Part shown: positions 1-12,112 of the stretch, in pieces
Layout: every line of letters begins with the position of its first letter
How positions within the stretch are numbered: the first letter of the stretch is position 1
Source: a virus
Lineage: Duplodnaviria; Heunggongvirae; Uroviricota; Caudoviricetes
DNA length: 12,112 nucleotides
Direction: 5' to 3' (one strand)
Virus record (IMG/VR): IMGVR_UViG_640753024_000005
Program-made: the position numbers and the translations under genes
Notes under the pieces: generated by a model
Databases searched by the model: none
Told to the model about the DNA's origin: nothing
Seen by the model: the letters and a program-made list of their open reading frames with translations, nothing else

Positions 1-696
1 TCACTTAGGGTATGGCTGAACCCTGAATAGTTTGGTATTTAGCCGCTTCCTTGCTCGCTTGTTCAGGAATCTGATGTAGCGATACTGATTAAATTTGTGC
101 GCCACGGCACGCTCTTTATTAGCCCGTAAATACACGCCTCGTTGTCCACCCCGCTTAATCGCGTTCATCGTTATCTCGTGATACCACTCACCATCCAGCT
201 CGTAGAACGTGCTTTCATGGCTGCCAATAAAATCAAAATTCGACGCCTGATACACAACGCCTGCGCGTCCGCAGCGTTCGTCAGCAAATGACTGAACCCA
301 CTCCACTGACGGATACAGTAATCTGATAACTTTCAGCGCGTAGCTGATGGCCCGTGATTCAGAGTTGCGGGGCATGTCGTCGTGTAGCCACATGCGATTC
401 AACTCCATATAGCCCCGGTTATCCGTTTCAAGCACGACACGACGACCTGAGTTGGGGTTAAGGGCATATCCCCACTGGAGAACGCCAACCAGATCGCGTC
501 CGCTGAATACTCCCAGGTGGAGGTAAGAGTTATTCACAAAACGGCGGGAATAGTGCTTTGTCTGAATAATTGTGCGGGCCAGCCAGCAGGATATGGTTTC
601 AACGCGCAGTTCCTTTGAACCATAGCCAACAATCTGGCCTTCATACTCAATAACGCACGGTTTCGTCAGAATGCGTGATTTTTTCTCTTTTCCCAC
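1..696 (-). CDS. mom: Mom DNA-modification protein; proposed GTG start at 696-694 giving 231 aa (alternative upstream ATG at 726-724 gives the 241-aa ORF in the track)
   Basis: ORF-track protein recognised as Mu Mom from memory. It sits at the extreme right end next to com and gin, as in Mu. A GGAG (707-704) lies 7 nt upstream of the GTG. The 231-aa length matches my recollection of Mu Mom; start choice is uncertain. Confidence 0.85.
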
Positions 697-835
697 AATG
701 TTTCTCCGTGGGATGCTCGCAGGCATTCAGCATTATGATGTGACGTTTGCAACGCGGACACCTGATTTCAATGTGATCAAAGGAATCCGCCTTAAATAAC
801 AGTTTGTTGCAGTTTTTACAGCGAATTGATTTCAT
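647..835 (-). CDS. com: Com, zinc-finger translational activator of mom (62 aa)
   Basis: 62-aa ORF with a CxxC...CxxC arrangement (CKNC ... CPRC). Strong AGGAGG 4 nt upstream of the ATG. Its 3' end overlaps the mom 5' end by about 50-80 nt. Size and position match Mu com. Confidence 0.9.
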
Positions 836-946
836 CTCACCTCCTTTGCATCAATTCGCCACTATCTTAAAAAACATCGTGGGTTGAGTGTGGTTATTGG
901 GGCATAATCGATCTGTATTACCGATCGATTCAATTGATTCGATCGT
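836..946 (-). promoter_or_regulatory. mom operon promoter/regulatory region: three GATC (Dam) sites, T6 tract adjoining a TAAGAT -10-like hexamer
   Basis: GATC at 910-913, 923-926 and 941-944, spaced 13 and 18 bp, two within CGATCG palindromes. A6 run at 869-874 (T6 on the mom sense strand) abuts a TAAGAT hexamer (864-869 reverse complement). In Mu, Pmom is repressed by OxyR at unmethylated GATCs and activated by C protein. Exact -35 and C-site not resolvable by eye. Confidence 0.6.
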
Positions 947-1511
947 CGTTTTCTATATGCGTTCGTTTGGCGGGGTGTTTTTTATACAGCGTTGACAGGG
1001 CCACATCGTAGATCAATGCGACCTGCTTGCGGGGGATTCCTTGTGCTAATAAACGCCCGGCCTGCTCCCATTCCGCTTTGGTTAGTTTAGGTGGTCGCCC
1101 ACCGATACGGCCTTTATTTCTGGCAGCAGCAAGTCCAGCCATCGTTCTCTCGATGATTAGTTCTCGTTCCATCTCAGCCAGGGCACCCATAACGTGGAAG
1201 AAAAAACGCCCCATTGGAGATGACGTATCAATACTGTCAGTAAGACTGCGAAAATTAATCCCTCGCTCTCGTAATTCCCCTACGAGAGAAATCAAATGTT
1301 TCATGCTTCGCCCGAGGCGATCCAGTTTCCAGACAACCAGTGTGTCACCTTTTTGAAGACGCTTTAAAGCGCGTTTTAATCCAGGTCTGTCTGTCCTTGT
1401 TCCGCTTAATTTATCTTCAAATATTTGTTCACATCCTGCACAAACAAGAGCGTTTCGTTGCAGGTCTGTATTCTGGTCATTTGTTGATACCCTTACATAG
1501 CCAATCAGCAC
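930..1511 (-). CDS. gin: Gin serine DNA invertase (193 aa), GTG start with GGGAG Shine-Dalgarno
   Basis: Protein begins MLIGYVRVSTNDQ with the catalytic Ser of the resolvase/invertase family and has a C-terminal HTH region. It lies directly next to an invertible segment flanked by gix-like repeats. Start codon is GTG (1511-1509). Confidence 0.95.
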   Translation of the reverse strand: MLIGYVRVSTNDQNTDLQRNALVCAGCEQIFEDKLSGTRTDRPGLKRALKRLQKGDTLVVWKLDRLGRSMKHLISLVGELRERGINFRSLTDSIDTSSPMGRFFFHVMGALAEMERELIIERTMAGLAAARNKGRIGGRPPKLTKAEWEQAGRLLAQGIPRKQVALIYDVALSTLYKKHPAKRTHIENDDRIN

Positions 1512-1565
1512 TCTGGATCTCCCGTTTAAAAGCGCAAATCATGCCATGCAGGCCGGAAACAGCCA

Positions 1566-3094: not shown

Positions 3095-3622
3095 TTATTC
3101 AGGCTTTTGTGGCCATTCAGGATTTGCCGTATCCACACGGCTGACCAGAACACTGTAGCGCTCCCATGCTTCCAGTCGGCTACGCTCCTCATCTGTTGCC
3201 ATGTTCAGCCTGACAGCGCGTTCCAGTGGCTGAATAACGCTTTCTGCTTCAGAAAGCAACGCGGCCTTTTGTGATTCGGCCTGTTGTTGCAGTTCCTGTT
3301 CTGTATATTCCCTCTTTACTACTTTACCATACAGAAACATCCATTTTCCGTTATTGTCTGCGCGACGATTTGCCGTAATATCAGGAACTTCAACTATGCT
3401 TAGCCCTTCAGGATTAATAGTTGAAACGTCTTTACTGACAGCAACGATGATGTTGTTCTCATCGTAAGCAATTTTTATGGTGTCTGGCTGAAAATTCTTT
3501 TGTTCCTCATACCAGTTTTTGCCATCTTCGCAAAAGAGCCATACCACGCCCGCTTTTTCAGTTAGCTGGTATTGTTCTTTTGTTTTAGGGTTGCCAGCAG
3601 TAATATTTTTTAAGTGCATCAT
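3095..3622 (-). CDS. U: U tail-fibre assembly protein (175 aa from the MMHLK start)
   Basis: Paralogue of U'. The ATG at 3622 lies 1 nt after the S stop (3624-3626). The 12 extra N-terminal residues in the track's 187-aa ORF overlap S and are not credited. Confidence 0.85.
3557..3622. repeat. Internal inverted repeat inside the G segment (U 5' end), partner at 2533-2598
   Basis: See partner entry. Confidence 0.85.
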
Positions 3623-3623
3623 C

Positions 3624-5033
3624 TTAAACACTCCCCACGTTGTACCATATTCCCCCAATCAATTTCTGAATTGGCCTTCTGGCAACAGTGTCGACAAGAT
3701 CATCCGCATTGCCGTTAATTGCGGCTGTTAAAACATAACCTGACGCATCGCCAAAGCCGTAGTCGCGCCATACGTTTTTATATTCAATGCTGCCAAGACG
3801 AATATCCCGAACGACATGATTATGCAGCCATGTGCTTAACCAGTTGTTTCCCCACACTGAACCATAAATATCGCCACTAGACGCAACTTGCGCACCACTT
3901 CCCAGCGCAAATCCCCCATCTGTTTTAAAAATGAAATCACCACCACCATCTGAACCGTTATTAATATGAACACCATCACCACCGTTATCTTTCCACAAAA
4001 ACATACGAATACTTCCGTCTTCGTTGGTGAATGTAATGTGGTGGCGGTAATTACTTTTTAATCTAAAAGCGCTGCAATTAGATTCAATATCTTTATAAAG
4101 ATGTAATCCTAACCCATCAATATGTCCGATGCGCGAACCATTTGAATAGAAGCTAATAATACCATCTCCATCTTGCCTAAATCCGGTGTCGTTATCTCCC
4201 AGAACAATGGAGTTTTCACCCAGTGCGTTATCAGTAGCACCAATAGCTAGACCTCCTTCAATTTTGGCCCCGTGGCTGACATATATAGCACCTGTTCTTA
4301 GATTTATAGCGAATGGCCTTAATGGGCCGATATCACCGTTTTCGCCTTGTCCTTCAGCCGTAGGGATGAAATGAAGGGACTCTTCTGAACGGCGGAAAAT
4401 AAGACCGAAGGCATCATTAAAAATTCGCAGCGCATTCATCGTTCCAATTTTCAGTTCTCCGGTCATTTTATCGCCGGAACGCTGAACGGCGTTACCAGCC
4501 TTGTTTACCGTTTCCTGTAAACCGAGGTTTTGGATAAACAGCGGCTTATTGGGAATATCTGCTCCGTTCCGGTCTTTTGCCAGACGGGCATTGGCATTAT
4601 CCATCGCAATTTTCACCGCTTTTGCGGTGGCTGCCAGCGTTTCACTGGGGCTGTCAGTGGCACTGGTTAGCTGAACGAGTCCTTTTTTGTTCAGGCTGGC
4701 ATCATAGATATCCAGATTTTCACGTGCTGTACGCTGTGCTGATGCCCCGGCAGTTTTAATTTCGCTGAGGTTATTTTTTATCAGCAGCGCGTTATTGCTC
4801 ATAATGGCTTTAATGGACAGTGCAAGCTGGTTTAATTTTGTTTTATCCGGTTGAATACCGGCTTCTTCCAGCGTGTTTAATAACTCCGCCTGCACAATAT
4901 TAAACCAGTCCATGCCGGGCCATGTGATAACATTATTCCCGTCACCTTCTGAAAACCAGCGAACGATAGCACTACGCTGGGCGGATACGGGCGGCATGAT
5001 GGTTACGCCGCTGTCGTTATCAATATAAAACAT
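3624..5033 (-). CDS. S: Tail fibre protein S (469 aa): constant part Sc (5033-4538), gix-encoded linker, variable part Sv (4503-3624)
   Basis: Long ORF crossing gixL in frame, with gly-rich fibre-like repeats in the variable part and a conserved C-terminal motif shared with Sv'. Its ATG overlaps the stop of the upstream gene (TAATG at 5035-5031). Confidence 0.9.
4504..4537. repeat. gix recombination site, left copy (34-bp inverted repeat; 26-bp core 4512-4537), embedded in the S reading frame
   Basis: Core ttcctgtaaaccgaggttttggataa with central GA at 4524-4525. In the S frame it encodes [12 protein letters not shown]. Confidence 0.9.
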
Positions 5034-7676: not shown

Positions 7677-8803
7677 GGCGGCGTTTTCTCCGGGTGTCTG
7701 CGATAATAATCTTCAACCAGCGCATCAATACCGCCGTTACTGTCGCCGCCTTTCCTGTTTTTACGGTCGCTTTCAACCGGCACCAGAAAGCCTTCGCGTG
7801 GTGCAAGGCTGACGCGGGTTTTCAGCCCGTCCTGGTCATTCAGTATCAGGGTGACTTTGCTGGCCAGTAATTCCGTGGTTTTGATGGCATATTTCGAGGC
7901 ATCAATAGTGACCAGCAGGTTCGGCATCCAGAGTTGCCCGTCCTTGCGAGTCCATCCGTCAATTTCAGCCTCAAAGGTGATGGATTTTGCCAGTCTGCGG
8001 CGTTGCTCACGCAGGGCGCGGGCCTGTGCATCCTTCGCCGTAATTTTGCTGTCGGCAATGATGATCATCGGTCTGTAACGGGTCACATCACTGTCAGTGG
8101 CGGTCCCTTTCCGGGAGACGATACTTTTCGCATCAATATCATCACCCTCAGCACCGTTTGCGCGGGCATACCCCTTGACGGTGTATTCGCTGAACCGGTC
8201 GCGGAAGTCTTCCTCAAAATCCAGTGTCAGCAGATTTTCTCCGAGAACCAGCTCATCAGTGGCTGTGCTGGCAGCCCGGCTGAATACCAGCTCTCCGGCG
8301 GCATTGCTGGTCATCAGTACACCGCGTGCGCGGGAGGCACGCACCAGCGCCTCATAAACGGTTTCTGAATGGTCCAGCGTGAAGCCGGGAAAAGCTGCCG
8401 AACTTTCCTTATCGGAAAGCTCCCAGCGAACGGTAACGCCATAAGGGGTGCACAGGTCACGCGCAATCTGCTCCAGTGTGCGGTTTTTCCACTGTCCGCC
8501 ACTGTAAACGGCAGCACAGTCAATCAGGTCAGCCGTTTTGTCACGTCCGGCGACAGTGATTTTCATACTGTCAGCGGTCATCTGGCGTCGCCGTGAATCG
8601 ATATAACCGGTGCAGACAATCTGCCCCCCGATTTCGAGCGTGAACGCCTTCCCCGGTGCCAGCCCGGATAAATCCGTGCCCGGTGGCACGTTCACCCCCA
8701 GCTCAAAATATCCGGCTACGGATTCAATGGAGCGGGTGACAGAGACTGACGTCCAGCCGGTAAAAAGCCTGCCATCCGTTCGCAGCGTGACGGTATTACT
8801 CAT
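7664..8803 (-). CDS. P: Baseplate hub protein, Mu gp44 equivalent (379 aa)
   Basis: Synteny and exact length match to Mu gp44. ATG at 8803-8801 preceded by GAGGTG and overlapping the stop of the B'-remnant fusion ORF. Confidence 0.75.
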   Translation of the reverse strand: MSNTVTLRTDGRLFTGWTSVSVTRSIESVAGYFELGVNVPPGTDLSGLAPGKAFTLEIGGQIVCTGYIDSRRRQMTADSMKITVAGRDKTADLIDCAAVYSGGQWKNRTLEQIARDLCTPYGVTVRWELSDKESSAAFPGFTLDHSETVYEALVRASRARGVLMTSNAAGELVFSRAASTATDELVLGENLLTLDFEEDFRDRFSEYTVKGYARANGAEGDDIDAKSIVSRKGTATDSDVTRYRPMIIIADSKITAKDAQARALREQRRRLAKSITFEAEIDGWTRKDGQLWMPNLLVTIDASKYAIKTTELLASKVTLILNDQDGLKTRVSLAPREGFLVPVESDRKNRKGGDSNGGIDALVEDYYRRHPEKTPPWKE

Positions 8804-9146
8804 TAATCACCTCAATACTGACACCACCGGGAACAAACAACGGGTTGCCACATACAACAGCAATACTTTCAGTCAGGCTGGCAAAACGCATACTTGTCCA
8901 GATTTGTTTTACCGTCTGCGTTTCCACAAAGCGGGGCGGTTCAGGTAGTTCTGCAACTGCATGATATTTTTCCAGCCAGCGTTGCAGCATTTGTGAAACA
9001 CGCTCGTTATCCCCGTTGTACTTATCATTGATAAAACTACTGATAGTTCCGGTAGAAAGTCCGCTCTCAAGAGCAATTTGTTTAAAGGTGGTTTCTTCAT
9101 TTTCTACAAGCGTGCGCAGTCCTGCGCGAATATCGGAAATATTCAT
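8796..9146 (-). pseudogene. B: Truncated B (target-DNA activator, AAA+ ATPase): residues 1-102 retained, fused in frame to a 14-codon remnant (LFVPGGVSIEVINE) that I infer to be the 3' end of gene N
   Basis: ORF starts MNISDIRAGLRTLVENEETTFKQIALESGL, recognised as the Mu B N-terminal domain from memory. Homology stops at ...VVCGNP (8849-8841), exactly where Walker A (GNPGVGKT) should continue. The ORF ends 14 codons later, overlapping the P start. Confidence 0.85.
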
Positions 9147-9184
9147 CTGAATAACCTCGTAATTAAATTTTGTTTAAACGTTAA

Positions 9185-11173
9185 TTAAATGGCTTTTTTA
9201 CGTCTGTTCTGTTCCAGAATATCCAGCGAATGATTCAGATATTCATCACGCTCAGTTTCGTATTCATCATCACGCTCCTGATTCTTCACCCGTTCCGTAT
9301 TACCGGAAGGCCGGAAAATGCCGACAATTCGTGATTCTGGTGCTTCAGGTTCGGCTATCTGCGGCAGCAGCTCTGCCACTTCCAGTGCATCCATTTGTTT
9401 TTGTGCCTTAATCGCTGCTTTCGTCGCAGATTTCAGTTGTTTCTGGCGGCGGCGATATTCACGGCCTGCCGCAGCATCATTAAACGCAACAGGTGCCAGA
9501 CATTCCGCTTCACAGATAAACCGACCGTCCAGGGTGTAGCAATAAACCGTGCTGTGTAACTGCTGTGGATCAAATCTGACCACAACTTTTTTCACTCCGG
9601 CATTCATTAACGCCATGTTGTAATAAACGTTTTTCGCACCTTTAAGGGAGCCGCCAACTTTAAGCGCGAACTCGCCTTTACGTGAAACGTTCACCGCCTC
9701 GGCAGGCAGTAACAGCATCCGTTTTTGCTCTTCGGTAGGCTTACGCACAATCGTTCTGGCGTATTCACGCTCAAAAACGTCATCAAACGAAAGTTTGCCT
9801 CCGCACATTTCTGTTTCACGGCCTGTTCTGGCATTGAACATCGCCACACCTTCGGCAAGGGTTTTCAGAAACAGCTCTGCATCAACAGCGCGGTCGCCAT
9901 AGTTATCAGGTTTTGCCTGCGGATTTGGCCCCGTATATGCGCCAGCCAGTGCCGGATGCTTATCAACGTATTCCTCAAGCCCACCAACACCGAAAGCACG
10001 TTCAACAGGTTTTGCCTGGCCCCAGCCTTTACCGGCAACAACGCTTGTCCAGTGCATTTTCGCGCCCATCAGTAAAAACAGTCCCTTTGGATCGTCCTCT
10101 TTTACCTTAAAGCGGTAACGATTGGGCGCGCCCCCCGTCAGCCATTTATTCGCTGCACCACGGGTGTTATCAATGGTGATGTGAAAATCCTCCGGGATGC
10201 CGTAGCGTGTCACCACATCCATAAACGAGAGGCGAATTGAGTCGATGTTCTCGCTTACATCGCAGCGCCAGCCCAGAATTTTTCGGGTTTTCACATCCTG
10301 CCAGAACCATGTTTTCGGGCGGATCACATCACCGTTAAACCAGCGTACAAAGACGTTATGCAGATAACCGTCGCCGTTGATCCACTGCATGGCGTCCAGG
10401 TGTTCCACAGTTCGCTGCTGTGCCGGTATCAGATGCATCAGTGCATGTTCACCTTCACGACAGGCAACAACCATTGCCTCGTCCAGTTGCTGAATCCGGC
10501 GAAAGGCCGTGGCACGGGAGGGAATACTCCAGCCATGCTCGCGGGCTGCCAGTTCCAGACGCTCATAACATTTGCGGAAGGCGGGCTTTTCCGGTCGCAG
10601 ATAATCTGCAATCAGAAACTGCCAGGCATCCTCGTCAAATTCACTTTTGTGAACGTTGCGACGGGATGCACCACGTCCATCAACAAGCGCAGCCGCCCAG
10701 TCAGGCTTCGCAAACTTCTGTACCTGGTAATACTTGTCCCGCAAAGTGGATGCGCTGACCTGGTAATGCCCAGCAACGGTCGCAAAAGCCGTTTTTGTTG
10801 AAATCCCCTGGTTCAGCATTTCGTCTGCAGCCTGAACCGCAGGCAACCATTTTTCAGCAAGTCTGCGCTGGGAATCGCTGGCGTTATCCCATTTGCTCCA
10901 CAGTGCCTCACGATCATAATCATGGGCTTCCAGCGTGGGGCGGGCGATTTCAAAATACCCCTGACTTGTTTCAATTCTCCCTTGTTGCAACAGAATTTCA
11001 GCACGTAATGCGACAGGGAATGATTTGATATTGAATTCAAATGATACACCTTTAGTCCCTGCAACCTGCCTGAACTCCCAGCCTTCTCTTTGTGCCTTAC
11101 GTGTAATGTTAGTGGCTTGCTTTGGTAAACCTGCCAAACCGAGCAACTCTTTTGCTGTATACCATTCTTTCAT
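9185..11173 (-). CDS. A: DDE transposase A (662 aa), apparently intact
   Basis: Recognised from memory as near-identical to MuA from about residue 65 onward. Catalytic DDE contexts present ([40 protein letters not shown]). N-terminal 60-65 residues differ from MuA as recalled and resemble the c repressor N-terminus. Confidence 0.95.
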
Positions 11174-11180
11174 AGCGCAC

Positions 11181-11402
11181 CTAGTATCGAGACGGCCAAA
11201 TATCTTGCGGTGTCATTCCCAGTGCATCTGCAATGATTTTCTCCGCTTTCGGATATCTCTTATCCAAAGCATTTTTCAATGTTGAAGACGAAAGATGATT
11301 AGATCTTCCCAATTCAGCTAGTGACATATTGCGTTTTCGTAGCTCTGCAACGATGTCAGCTCTGTGCCAATCTTGGCGGTTAGTTCTTTTATTCATATGC
11401 AT
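11181..11402 (-). CDS. ner: Ner-family early regulator (73 aa; possible start at the third Met, 11396)
   Basis: Small basic HTH protein with the DWHRADI...LSSSTL...IWPSRY signature shared by phage Ner and E. coli Nlp. Sits between the operator region and A. Looks D108-type rather than Mu-type from memory. Confidence 0.85.
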
Positions 11403-11587
11403 TTCATGTAATCCTTTCAGATTCCCCCGTGAGCTACGCTATAAAGTAGCTCACGGCATATCGTGCAATGTAGTGTGGAATCACTCTCAAATCAATAGGG
11501 ATTTGAAAGGATTTGCCATGATTTCATATAACGGCATGATTTTTATATGAATTTATTTTGTCTCTATTGAAATCACTAGGATTTTAA
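11403..11587. promoter_or_regulatory. Divergent early (Pe, leftward) and repressor (Pc, rightward) promoter/operator region
   Basis: 185-bp AT-rich intergenic region between divergent ner and c. Candidate leftward elements: TTGCAC (11463-11468 rc), 17 bp, TTTATA (11440-11445 rc), or TTGATT/TACATT further upstream. Candidate rightward elements: TTGAAA (11503-11508), 18 bp, TATAAC (11527-11532). All weak matches, unverified. Confidence 0.5.
11427..11456. promoter_or_regulatory. Perfect inverted repeat, likely Ner operator: ccgtgagctac - 8 bp (gctataaa) - gtagctcacgg
   Basis: 11-bp arms at 11427-11437 and 11446-11456 are exact reverse complements with an AT-rich 8-bp spacer, 25 bp upstream of the ner start. 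Matches my recollection that D108 Ner binds 11-bp inverted repeats. Confidence 0.6.
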
Positions 11588-12112
11588 ATGATGTCTTTTG
11601 AAATCAAAGAATGGTTTAATGCGAAAGAGCTGGAAGGGATGCCTGGTGTACCAAAGTTGGCGACTAACATTACCAGGAAAGCTGTGGCGGAAGATTGGGT
11701 AAAACGTCAGCGTCACGGTGGGAAAGGTGTCGCTTATGAGTATCACATCAACAGTCTGCCAGAAGAAACACGCAGGGCCATTAAAGGTGCCTCACTTTCT
11801 GATAAACCAGTGCATACATCAATCGCCCATACAGTTGATGAGAGGCTAATTTATGCAATGAGCTTTTTAACACCAGATGAGCAGGCCGCAGCTGTGGAGA
11901 TCATTCGTGTAGCAGGGATTAAAGGACTTATGCCTACAATTGTCAGTAAAGATAAGGCATTAGAGGCATTAGGGATTACTGTGGAGCAACAGAAAACCCT
12001 GCAAACTCTTCAAGCATTACCACCGGAAAAAGTAAGAGAGATTTTGTCTCAGTATGAAGGCAAAGAACATAATTTCCCTGTAAGAGAAAACGATGTAAAG
12101 AAAGCTGTATAA
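11588..12112 (+). CDS. c: c repressor (174 aa), immunity repressor of the transposable phage
   Basis: Divergent from ner-A across the operator region. Its N-terminal region is about 50% identical to the A N-terminal domain (shared [16 protein letters not shown]), the known repressor/transposase paralogy in Mu-like phages. Confidence 0.8.
   Translation: MMSFEIKEWFNAKELEGMPGVPKLATNITRKAVAEDWVKRQRHGGKGVAYEYHINSLPEETRRAIKGASLSDKPVHTSIAHTVDERLIYAMSFLTPDEQAAAVEIIRVAGIKGLMPTIVSKDKALEALGITVEQQKTLQTLQALPPEKVREILSQYEGKEHNFPVRENDVKKAV

Follow-up and report, generated by a model that had tools for sequence, protein, structure and literature searches.

The early region of a defective prophage in ssuA of Escherichia coli E24377A agrees with that of phage D108

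Phages D108 and Mu are heteroimmune, and both the N-terminal domain shared by repressor and transposase and the modular exchange of the immunity and enhancer-recognition region between the two phages are classic results of 1985–1989. In the accepted model for Mu, repressor and transposase compete for operator/enhancer sites that they share. The N-terminal domain of the Mu A protein binds the transpositional enhancer, which overlaps the repressor operators; the repressor therefore both stops early transcription and obstructs the site that the transposase needs. The Mu enhancer has been described as overlapping operators O1–O3, and as made up of MuA-binding clusters around an IHF site (PMC3145075). 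For D108, Mizuuchi, Weisberg and Mizuuchi (1986; NAR 14:3813; PMC3820752, ref. 52) named the similarity of c and A and its regulatory meaning in the title of their paper, which is cited there alongside Harshey et al. (1985; PNAS 82:7676; PMC3820752, refs 51–52).

The window analysed here, the whole stretch of 12,112 nt, belongs to a 12.6-kb defective prophage with intact ends in ssuA of E. coli E24377A (CP000800.1). Positions 10960–12112 very probably form the control region at the left end of a D108-type phage in the Mu species (Muvirus mu), and none of the results speaks against this assignment. The c gene lies on one strand and the early operon opens on the other with ner and A, the two being separated by a 185-nt region that is the putative divergent operator/promoter region. 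The features of this part of the window are as follows.

11588–12112, plus strand: c repressor gene, D108 type, 174 aa, an open reading frame whose stop codon is at the window end
11603–11782, plus strand: N-terminal winged-helix DNA-binding domain of c, aa 6–65, paralogous to the A N-terminus
11403–11587, no strand: c-ner divergent control region, 185 nt, with putative operators, transposition enhancer, and early and repressor promoters
11181–11402, minus strand: ner gene of D108 type encoding 73 aa, all of which agree with D108 Ner (73/73); identity to Mu Ner is 49%
9185–11173, minus strand: A transposase gene, intact, 662 aa, 662/662 identical to D108 A
10961–11173, minus strand: D108-specific N-terminal domain of A, aa 1–71, predicted to be I-alpha-like and enhancer-binding; 100% identical to D108 and 40% to MuA(1–64)
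10961–10985, no strand: transition zone in which Mu homology resumes, A codons ~63–71, placed by the blastn end, sliding identity and the last divergent residue
8796–9146, minus strand: truncated B of 116 aa, in which B(1–102) continues in frame into the final 14 codons of N
8842–8848, no strand: deletion joint with ~7 nt of microhomology, GCAACCC, at which the D108 matches abut

The D108 genome (GQ357916, nt 3610–340) is collinear with window 8842–12112 at 98.62% identity over 3271 nt without gaps (blastn). With attL added the match is 98.67% over 3610 nt; the 48 base differences are densest in the c-ner spacer (7 in 185 nt), and D108 identity is 93–100% in every 100-nt window from 8852 to 12112. 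At the protein level A (662/662), Ner (73/73) and B(1–102) (102/102) are identical to those of D108, the 28 nucleotide differences in the A gene all being synonymous; c agrees at 172/174 residues, with Y50 and A80 in the window and N and V in the D108 record. The Pfam assignments are HTH_Tnp_Mu_1 (PF02316) for c at 173.6 bits (cut-off 23.3), HTH_35 (PF13693) for Ner at 99.3 bits (cut-off 25), and HTH_Tnp_Mu_1, HTH_Tnp_Mu_2, DDE_2 and Mu-transpos_C for A; a ‘Death’ match at the B N-terminus scored 21.9 bits, short of the cut-off of 22.6, and was dismissed as chance, and an Rfam scan of the whole window gave nothing at gathering thresholds. The region has the D108 set of a 174-aa c, a 73-aa Ner and a 662-aa A with the D108 N-terminus, and this organisation of c, ner and the A 5' end is D108's own, not specific to the E24377A locus.

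Against Mu, identity falls to 54/174 residues (31%) for c, 35/71 (49%) for Ner and 25/63 (40%) for A(1–63), whereas it is 595/599 (99.3%) for A(64–662) and 102/102 for B(1–102); the blastn match to Mu is limited to window 8842–10985. The c protein has 174 aa here and 196 aa in Mu, with a conserved C-terminal tail, VKKAV. The earlier note had described a D108-type immunity module on a Mu-type backbone, with c, ner and the A N-terminus differing from Mu and with A beyond about residue 65 and B(1–102) Mu-identical. The module and the differences from Mu are borne out by the alignments, and so is the identity of B; that of A is near but inexact, and the early-region backbone is D108 at 98.6%; ‘Mu-type’ applies only to the right end of the prophage, outside the window, which is Mu-like and lacks D108 gene 56. 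In A(64–end) and B(1–102) together, the D108 base is present at 35 of the 43 sites that distinguish D108 from Mu. D108 is the best description of the early region, in preference to Mu carrying a D108 insert.

The boundary of Mu homology inside A had been placed at about 10975–11000, and this estimate is right, since the blastn match to Mu ends at 10985 (A codon 63), the divergent block has its last amino-acid difference at residue 71 (about 10961; Q71 here, L in Mu), and the sliding profile agrees. In 100-nt windows Mu identity is 100% at 10951–10852, 85% at 11001–10902 and 65% at 11051–10952, and 35–55% further left. The transition zone 10961–10985 is the ancestral D108/Mu module boundary; the break is present in D108 itself, and 44 complete E. 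coli genomes have it too. It marks where the exchangeable immunity/enhancer-recognition module ends; Mu and D108 share the remainder of A, which serves att-end binding and catalysis. That Mu homology does stop at 10985, and that the right end of the prophage is of Mu rather than D108 type, could also suggest a new recombinant, in which a Mu prophage of this lineage gained a D108 immunity cassette by a recent, locus-specific crossover in A at about 10975–11000. This is highly improbable, as D108 has the same junction and is collinear with the window across it at 100% identity in the flanking 100-nt windows, the bases to the right of the junction are D108's at the 35 of 43 sites given above, and the D108-type module recurs in those 44 genomes; moreover, the full-length relative in E. 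coli FDAARGOS_1058 is 99.88% identical over 8842–12112 and its right end is also short and of Mu length. The mosaic is thus not a noteworthy property of this locus: the early region is uniformly identical to one phage, D108, which is the observation that the earlier note had itself named as speaking against its proposal, and the new-recombinant reading is refuted by it. The D108-type module is found in 44 of 5,426 complete E. coli genomes and the Mu-type module in 27; the former is at least as common as the latter in this set. Public assemblies contain the exact c protein in 4190 indexed blocks.

The N-termini of c and A, which the earlier note had put at about 50% identity, align by BLASTP at 33/60 identities (55%) without gaps (E 7e-18; c 6–65 against A 1–60). 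As in Mu, PF02316 is present in both repressor and transposase, with A scoring 142.5 bits against the cut-off of 23.3. Both N-termini match the solved domains 1TNS/1TNT (MuA I-alpha) and 1G4D/1QPM (Mu repressor domain): A(1–71) at E 4e-14 to PDB 1TNS and 1.1e-4 to 1G4D, and c at E 6.9e-8 and 6e-4 respectively. The two N-termini are paralogous winged-helix DNA-binding domains. The kinship of c and A is ordinary, since it had already been published in 1986, when Mizuuchi, Weisberg and Mizuuchi reportedly also proposed a functional interaction of the two proteins.

Core-domain identity is 54% and 40% within a phage and 26% and 39% between phages; in the window phage c and A share 54%, whereas their identity to the Mu orthologues is only 26% (c) and 39% (A). 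A stretch, ATNITRKA, is identical in c and A of the window, where the Mu pair has AGV.Y.A. This excess of identity within a phage over that between phages might be attributed to recent gene conversion between the inverted 5' ends of the two genes rather than to old paralogy maintained by selection for common DNA sites; the c and A 5' segments are indeed inverted repeats separated by about 430 nt, and blastn aligns 71 nt of them at 74.6% DNA identity (11103–11173 against 11603–11673). However, over the 180 aligned nucleotides DNA identity is only 58.9%, the same codon is used for only 18 of the 33 shared residues, and the longest exact run is 11 nt, so the similarity is kept at the protein level; the Mu c/A pair has a similar DNA identity of 56.7%. 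Gene conversion was rejected on codon usage and is considered improbable.

The control region carries eight KGATTT repeats at 11489–11606, reaching slightly into the c 5' end, which are 8 of the 31 copies in the window within 118 nt. None of 5000 shuffles of the repeat segment reached eight copies, a figure that is inflated because the motif was derived, after viewing, from the region in which it was counted. All eight repeats are present in D108. The Mu control region instead has a CTTTTY cluster: the same region of Mu contains 7 CTTTTY and no KGATTT, and no CTTTTY is found at prophage nt 840–1100. The region is accordingly not of the Mu immunity type in the strict sense, having c at 31% and Ner at 49% identity and lacking the CTTTTY cluster. 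The divergence of c, Ner and A(1–63) together with the different repeat cluster indicates a different DNA specificity, and heteroimmunity, the latter on the strength of what is established for Mu and D108. The reciprocal signature, KGATTT against CTTTTY, is testable as a basis of heteroimmunity.

The KGATTT repeats are putative binding sites of c and A, and by analogy with Mu both proteins would bind the same sites in the window element. Each begins with a domain of the same winged-helix family (MuA I-alpha and the Mu repressor DNA-binding domain), and the repressor/transposase logic of Mu would then hold here with D108-type specificity. A sigma-70 promoter scan of 11300–11750 returned one site, no more than expected by chance; the positions of the putative promoters come solely from analogy with Mu and D108. 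An IHF-like site at 11529–11541 within the repeat cluster (consensus WATCAANNNNTTR, one mismatch) is not claimed because such sites number 15 in the whole window, where chance gives 13.

The prophage as a whole has the marks of a Mu-like transposable prophage, namely 5'-TG...CA-3' ends, terminal A-binding repeats and a 5-bp duplication; its ends, TGTATTGATTCACTTGAAGTACGAAA... and ...TTTCGTGCGCCGCTTCA, lie outside the window (locus L005) and are flanked on both sides by GCCGA, the 5-bp target duplication. It is not a complete D108 genome, which has a gene set of about 37 kb with gene 56 between mom and the right end. At the deletion, D108 nt 3610, within B, is joined to nt 27692, in the 3' end of N, and D108 nt 3611–27691 are absent (about 24.1 kb missing). 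At the right end the alignment with Mu continues up to nt 36717, and the last 60 nt are identical to Mu; with the D108 right end only the last 86 nt align, at 81.6%, and the D108 insertion of about 485 nt is absent, along with gene 56. Of the sites that tell the two phages apart in late genes P to Sc, which both have, 31 are D108-like and 30 Mu-like, so neither phage can be called the backbone of the late genes. Agreement with D108 therefore does not extend to the whole prophage, which has a right end of Mu type and late genes that mix D108-like with Mu-like sites. The tail-fibre tip of the prophage is divergent.

B is truncated inside its nucleotide-binding loop, and through the in-frame B::N fusion, genes P to U, for baseplate and tail fibre, would come to lie immediately downstream of the putative early promoter. 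The fusion open reading frame is also present in CP000800.1 and in the independent read-based Logan assembly SRR9425412; the joint was absent from the complete E. coli genomes searched (a set without the RefSeq record of E24377A) and from the plasmid records searched. The layout of c, ner, A and truncated B followed by the right-hand part of the genome resembles an engineered mini-Mu, which, with the absence of the joint from every complete E. coli genome of the collection, would fit an assembly artefact, or a mini-Mu or mini-D108 made in the laboratory. Such an origin is scarcely credible for an element that sits in a finished chromosome, recurs with the same joint in an independent assembly, is inserted in ssuA with a target duplication, and has a joint of 7-nt microhomology with no marker gene and no foreign, vector or linker DNA; no plasmid record carries the joint, and this c allele is also found in natural decay forms of other kinds, at two further loci (L010 and L017). 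The element is thus taken to be a natural remnant. It is possible, if rather unlikely, that this remnant is a repressor-controlled mini-D108 (A+ B−), transposing at low frequency or mobilised by a helper, and not mere debris, because it retains both ends, the putative operator/enhancer, an intact c, Ner, and an A under purifying selection; its host might also gain immunity of the D108 type from it.

The relation between repressor and transposase seen here is already known, and the locus is another copy of the D108 version; it matters little beyond the correct annotation, which is that of a defective prophage with D108 immunity in ssuA of E. coli E24377A.

Among known systems, the D108 left-end control region (GQ357916 / NC_013594) agrees with the window in gene order, gene lengths and sequence, and shares the boundary of Mu divergence inside A as well as all of the KGATTT repeats. 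Mu (AF083977) shares its architecture, and presumably its regulatory logic, with the window. The FDAARGOS_1058 prophage (NZ_CP065970.1, in yidA) has a 5-bp target duplication like the E24377A element, and only 111 nt from the mom stop codon to the flanking gene, leaving no room for gene 56. Shigella phage SfMu is 93.6% identical over window 9000–12112, and it has a D108-type c and Ner (PMC4406740). The FDAARGOS_1058 prophage and SfMu are full length, about 37 kb, whereas the E24377A element is shorter by 24 kb and has a different tail-fibre tip. Laboratory mini-Mu and mini-D108 elements, which are A+ and either B+ or B−, have both ends, the operator/enhancer, c, ner and intact A with the middle removed, as does the prophage; unlike them, it is natural, arose by a microhomology deletion, has no marker, and keeps P through mom, including the invertible G segment.

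The stop codons of mom and c mark the exact ends of the window, whose reverse complement is positions 7035-19146 of L005, the locus holding the whole prophage and its flanks. The ORF map gives the following layout, with the repressor gene c opposite the early genes:

11588-12112, plus strand: c, repressor
11181-11402, minus strand: ner
9185-11173, minus strand: A, transposase
8796-9146, minus strand: 116-aa ORF with a B-like start
after the B-like ORF, minus strand, in this order: late genes P, 45, 46, 47, 48 and S-U
beyond S-U: an inverted S'-U' pair, then gin, com and mom
1566-1606 and 4497-4537: inverted repeats of the invertible G segment

The 116-aa ORF is matched exactly in the E. coli chromosome CP000800.1 by protein look-up, and is also present in an independent read-based assembly, SRR9425412; the chromosome is that of strain E24377A. 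The prophage spans 12,566 bp (L005 6696-19261); its Mu-type TG...CA termini are intact and are flanked by GCCGA, the duplicated 5-bp target (L005 6691-6700, 19257-19266). The insertion lies close to the 3' end of ssuA, with ssuE-ssuA on one side and ssuD on the other in CP000800.1 (ssu names are inferred from Pfam content and gene order), and probably disconnects the sulfonate-utilisation genes that lie downstream.

The early region is that of D108. An earlier note held c, Ner and the N-terminus of A to be unlike their Mu counterparts, and A beyond about residue 65 together with B(1-102) to be Mu-like; protein comparison bears out both statements.

Amino-acid identity of the early proteins to those of D108 (GQ357916 / NC_013594) and Mu (AF083977)
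c: D108 172/174; Mu 31%
Ner: D108 73/73; Mu 49%
A, whole: D108 662/662
A(1-63): D108 63/63; Mu 40%
A(64-662): D108 599/599; Mu 99.3%
B(1-102): D108 102/102; Mu 102/102

The blastn match to Mu is limited to 8842-10985 (97.4%), and in sliding 100-nt comparisons identity to Mu falls from 100% (10951-10852) through 85% and 65% to values of 35-55% left of about 11000. The factual statements of the note are thus all confirmed, including a boundary inside A at about 10975-11000. The idea that this mosaic is particular to the window did not survive, as the early region uniformly matches a single reference: the blastn alignment to D108 covers 8842-12112 without gaps at 98.62%, and sliding identity is 93-100% throughout. 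The window stays with D108 on the right-hand side of the boundary as well: of the 43 sites in A(64-end) and B(1-102) that differ between the two phages, 35 carry the D108 base and 7 the Mu base, and all 28 base differences from D108 in A are synonymous (28/28). By every feature tested, 10960-12112 belongs to the D108 early region as its control region, and is not of the Mu immunity type. Among 5,426 complete E. coli genomes, 44 contain the module (10990-12112) and 27, several of them laboratory strains, its Mu counterpart; public assemblies contain the exact c protein in 4190 indexed blocks, at many chromosomal positions, and a full-length relative inserted in yidA of FDAARGOS_1058 is 99.88% identical across 8842-12112. 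The break inside A is thus the old D108/Mu module boundary, not an event at this locus.

Several smaller departures from the references were seen. A patch at 10150-10300 (A codons about 290-340) is only 93-94% identical to both D108 and Mu, all changes being synonymous, which suggests a short import from a different phage of the same species. In c, codon 50 (11735) encodes Y where deposited D108 has N, and codon 80 (11826) A where it has V; since the window allele is the one found in the 4190 blocks, and A and both Mu proteins have an aromatic residue at the position of Y50, a laboratory variant may be present in the D108 record. The VKKAV ending c (12092-12109) is identical in the Mu repressor, despite the low overall identity; the C-terminal tail of the Mu repressor governs its ClpXP-dependent degradation.

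The N-termini of c and A were said to be about 50% identical, and BLASTP aligns c residues 6-65 with A residues 1-60 ungapped at 33/60 (55%, E 7e-18); the pair is also found by nucleotide comparison (74.6% over 71 nt). Both N-terminal domains match PF02316 (c 173.6 bits, A 142.5 bits; cut-off 23.3), and each protein also matches two domains of known structure, MuA I-alpha (1TNS/1TNT) and the DNA-binding domain of the Mu repressor (1G4D/1QPM), placing the region in the Mu-family winged-helix domain family. Over 61-62 aligned core columns, c and A are 54% identical here and 40% in Mu, whereas orthologues between the phages reach 26% (c-c) and 39% (A-A); here c and A have the stretch ATNITRKA in common, where the Mu pair shares AGV.Y.A. 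Recent gene conversion between the two genes would also make them alike, but is rejected because nucleotide identity is 58.9% over 180 aligned nt, 18 of 33 conserved residues use the same codon, and the longest exact run is 11 nt; the similarity is maintained at the protein level. That likeness is greater within than between phages fits a specificity co-varying between repressor, transposase and DNA.

Eight copies of KGATTT lie in 118 nt of the c-ner control region (11489-11606), where the window-wide density predicts 0.3, and 0 of 5000 shuffles reached eight; the motif was picked after the region was seen, which makes these statistics a lead, not proof. D108 retains all 8/8, and the same region of Mu has seven CTTTTY and no KGATTT, with no CTTTTY copies in the control region here. 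The KGATTT repeats are candidate binding sites, and the reciprocal pattern likewise fits co-varying specificity. Divergence from D108 in the early region peaks in the c-ner spacer (11403-11587): its 185 nt contain 7 mismatches, the remaining 3425 nt 41. One of the 7 turns the T that opens a KGATTT repeat into G. The Mu transpositional enhancer, MuA-binding clusters around an IHF site, overlaps operators O1-O3 (PMC3145075), so that in Mu the repressor blocks early transcription and also occupies DNA needed by the transposase; the element here most likely works likewise. For D108, the title of Mizuuchi, Weisberg and Mizuuchi 1986 already states the c/A similarity, and prior literature for Mu includes Harshey et al. 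1985, both as cited in PMC3820752. The shared domain, the heteroimmune module and the boundary in A have been in the literature since 1985-1989.

About 24.1 kb is missing from the prophage. The D108 matches meet at 8842-8848, where about 7 nt of microhomology joins D108 nt 3610 (B codon 102, in the nucleotide-binding loop GNPGVGKT) to nt 27692, which lies 53 nt short of the stop codon of N; the resulting B(1-102)::N(last 14 aa) fusion (8796-9146, minus strand) is in frame and preserves the N-stop/P-start overlap. The deletion therefore removed kil, gam, mor, C, the lysis and head genes, most tail genes and the central gyrase site. P to U now directly follow ner-A-B', behind the early promoter. 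A reading of low probability is that the remnant remains functional as a natural mini-D108 under repressor control, or that it gives its host immunity. Two other E. coli loci carry the same c allele: in one (L010), c and ner are joined directly to baseplate genes, and in the other (L017), c, ner and IS1 are followed by U, com and mom. Independent erosion sparing c and ner seems recurrent in other E. coli genomes.

As is usual in this phage species, recombination has made the late region a patchwork: from P to Sc, 31 of the sites that tell D108 from Mu carry the D108 base and 30 the Mu base. The variable, receptor-binding part of S (3678-4483, minus strand) matches neither Mu nor D108 at the nucleotide level; in a protein comparison with about 50,000 deposited phages it comes closest to Yersinia Mu-like phages, at 46% identity. 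The rest of the G segment is only about 88-91% identical to Mu and D108. The right end (window 1-1565 plus L005 19147-19261) is Mu-type: the gin-com-mom-attR stretch is 97.7% identical to Mu with no indel, the final 60 nt do not differ from Mu at all, and the D108 gene 56 insertion (about 485 nt) is absent. A left end of D108 type is therefore paired with a right end of Mu type in this element. The whole prophage is not a complete D108, and in the FDAARGOS_1058 relative, too, the right end is as short as that of Mu and leaves no space for gene 56.
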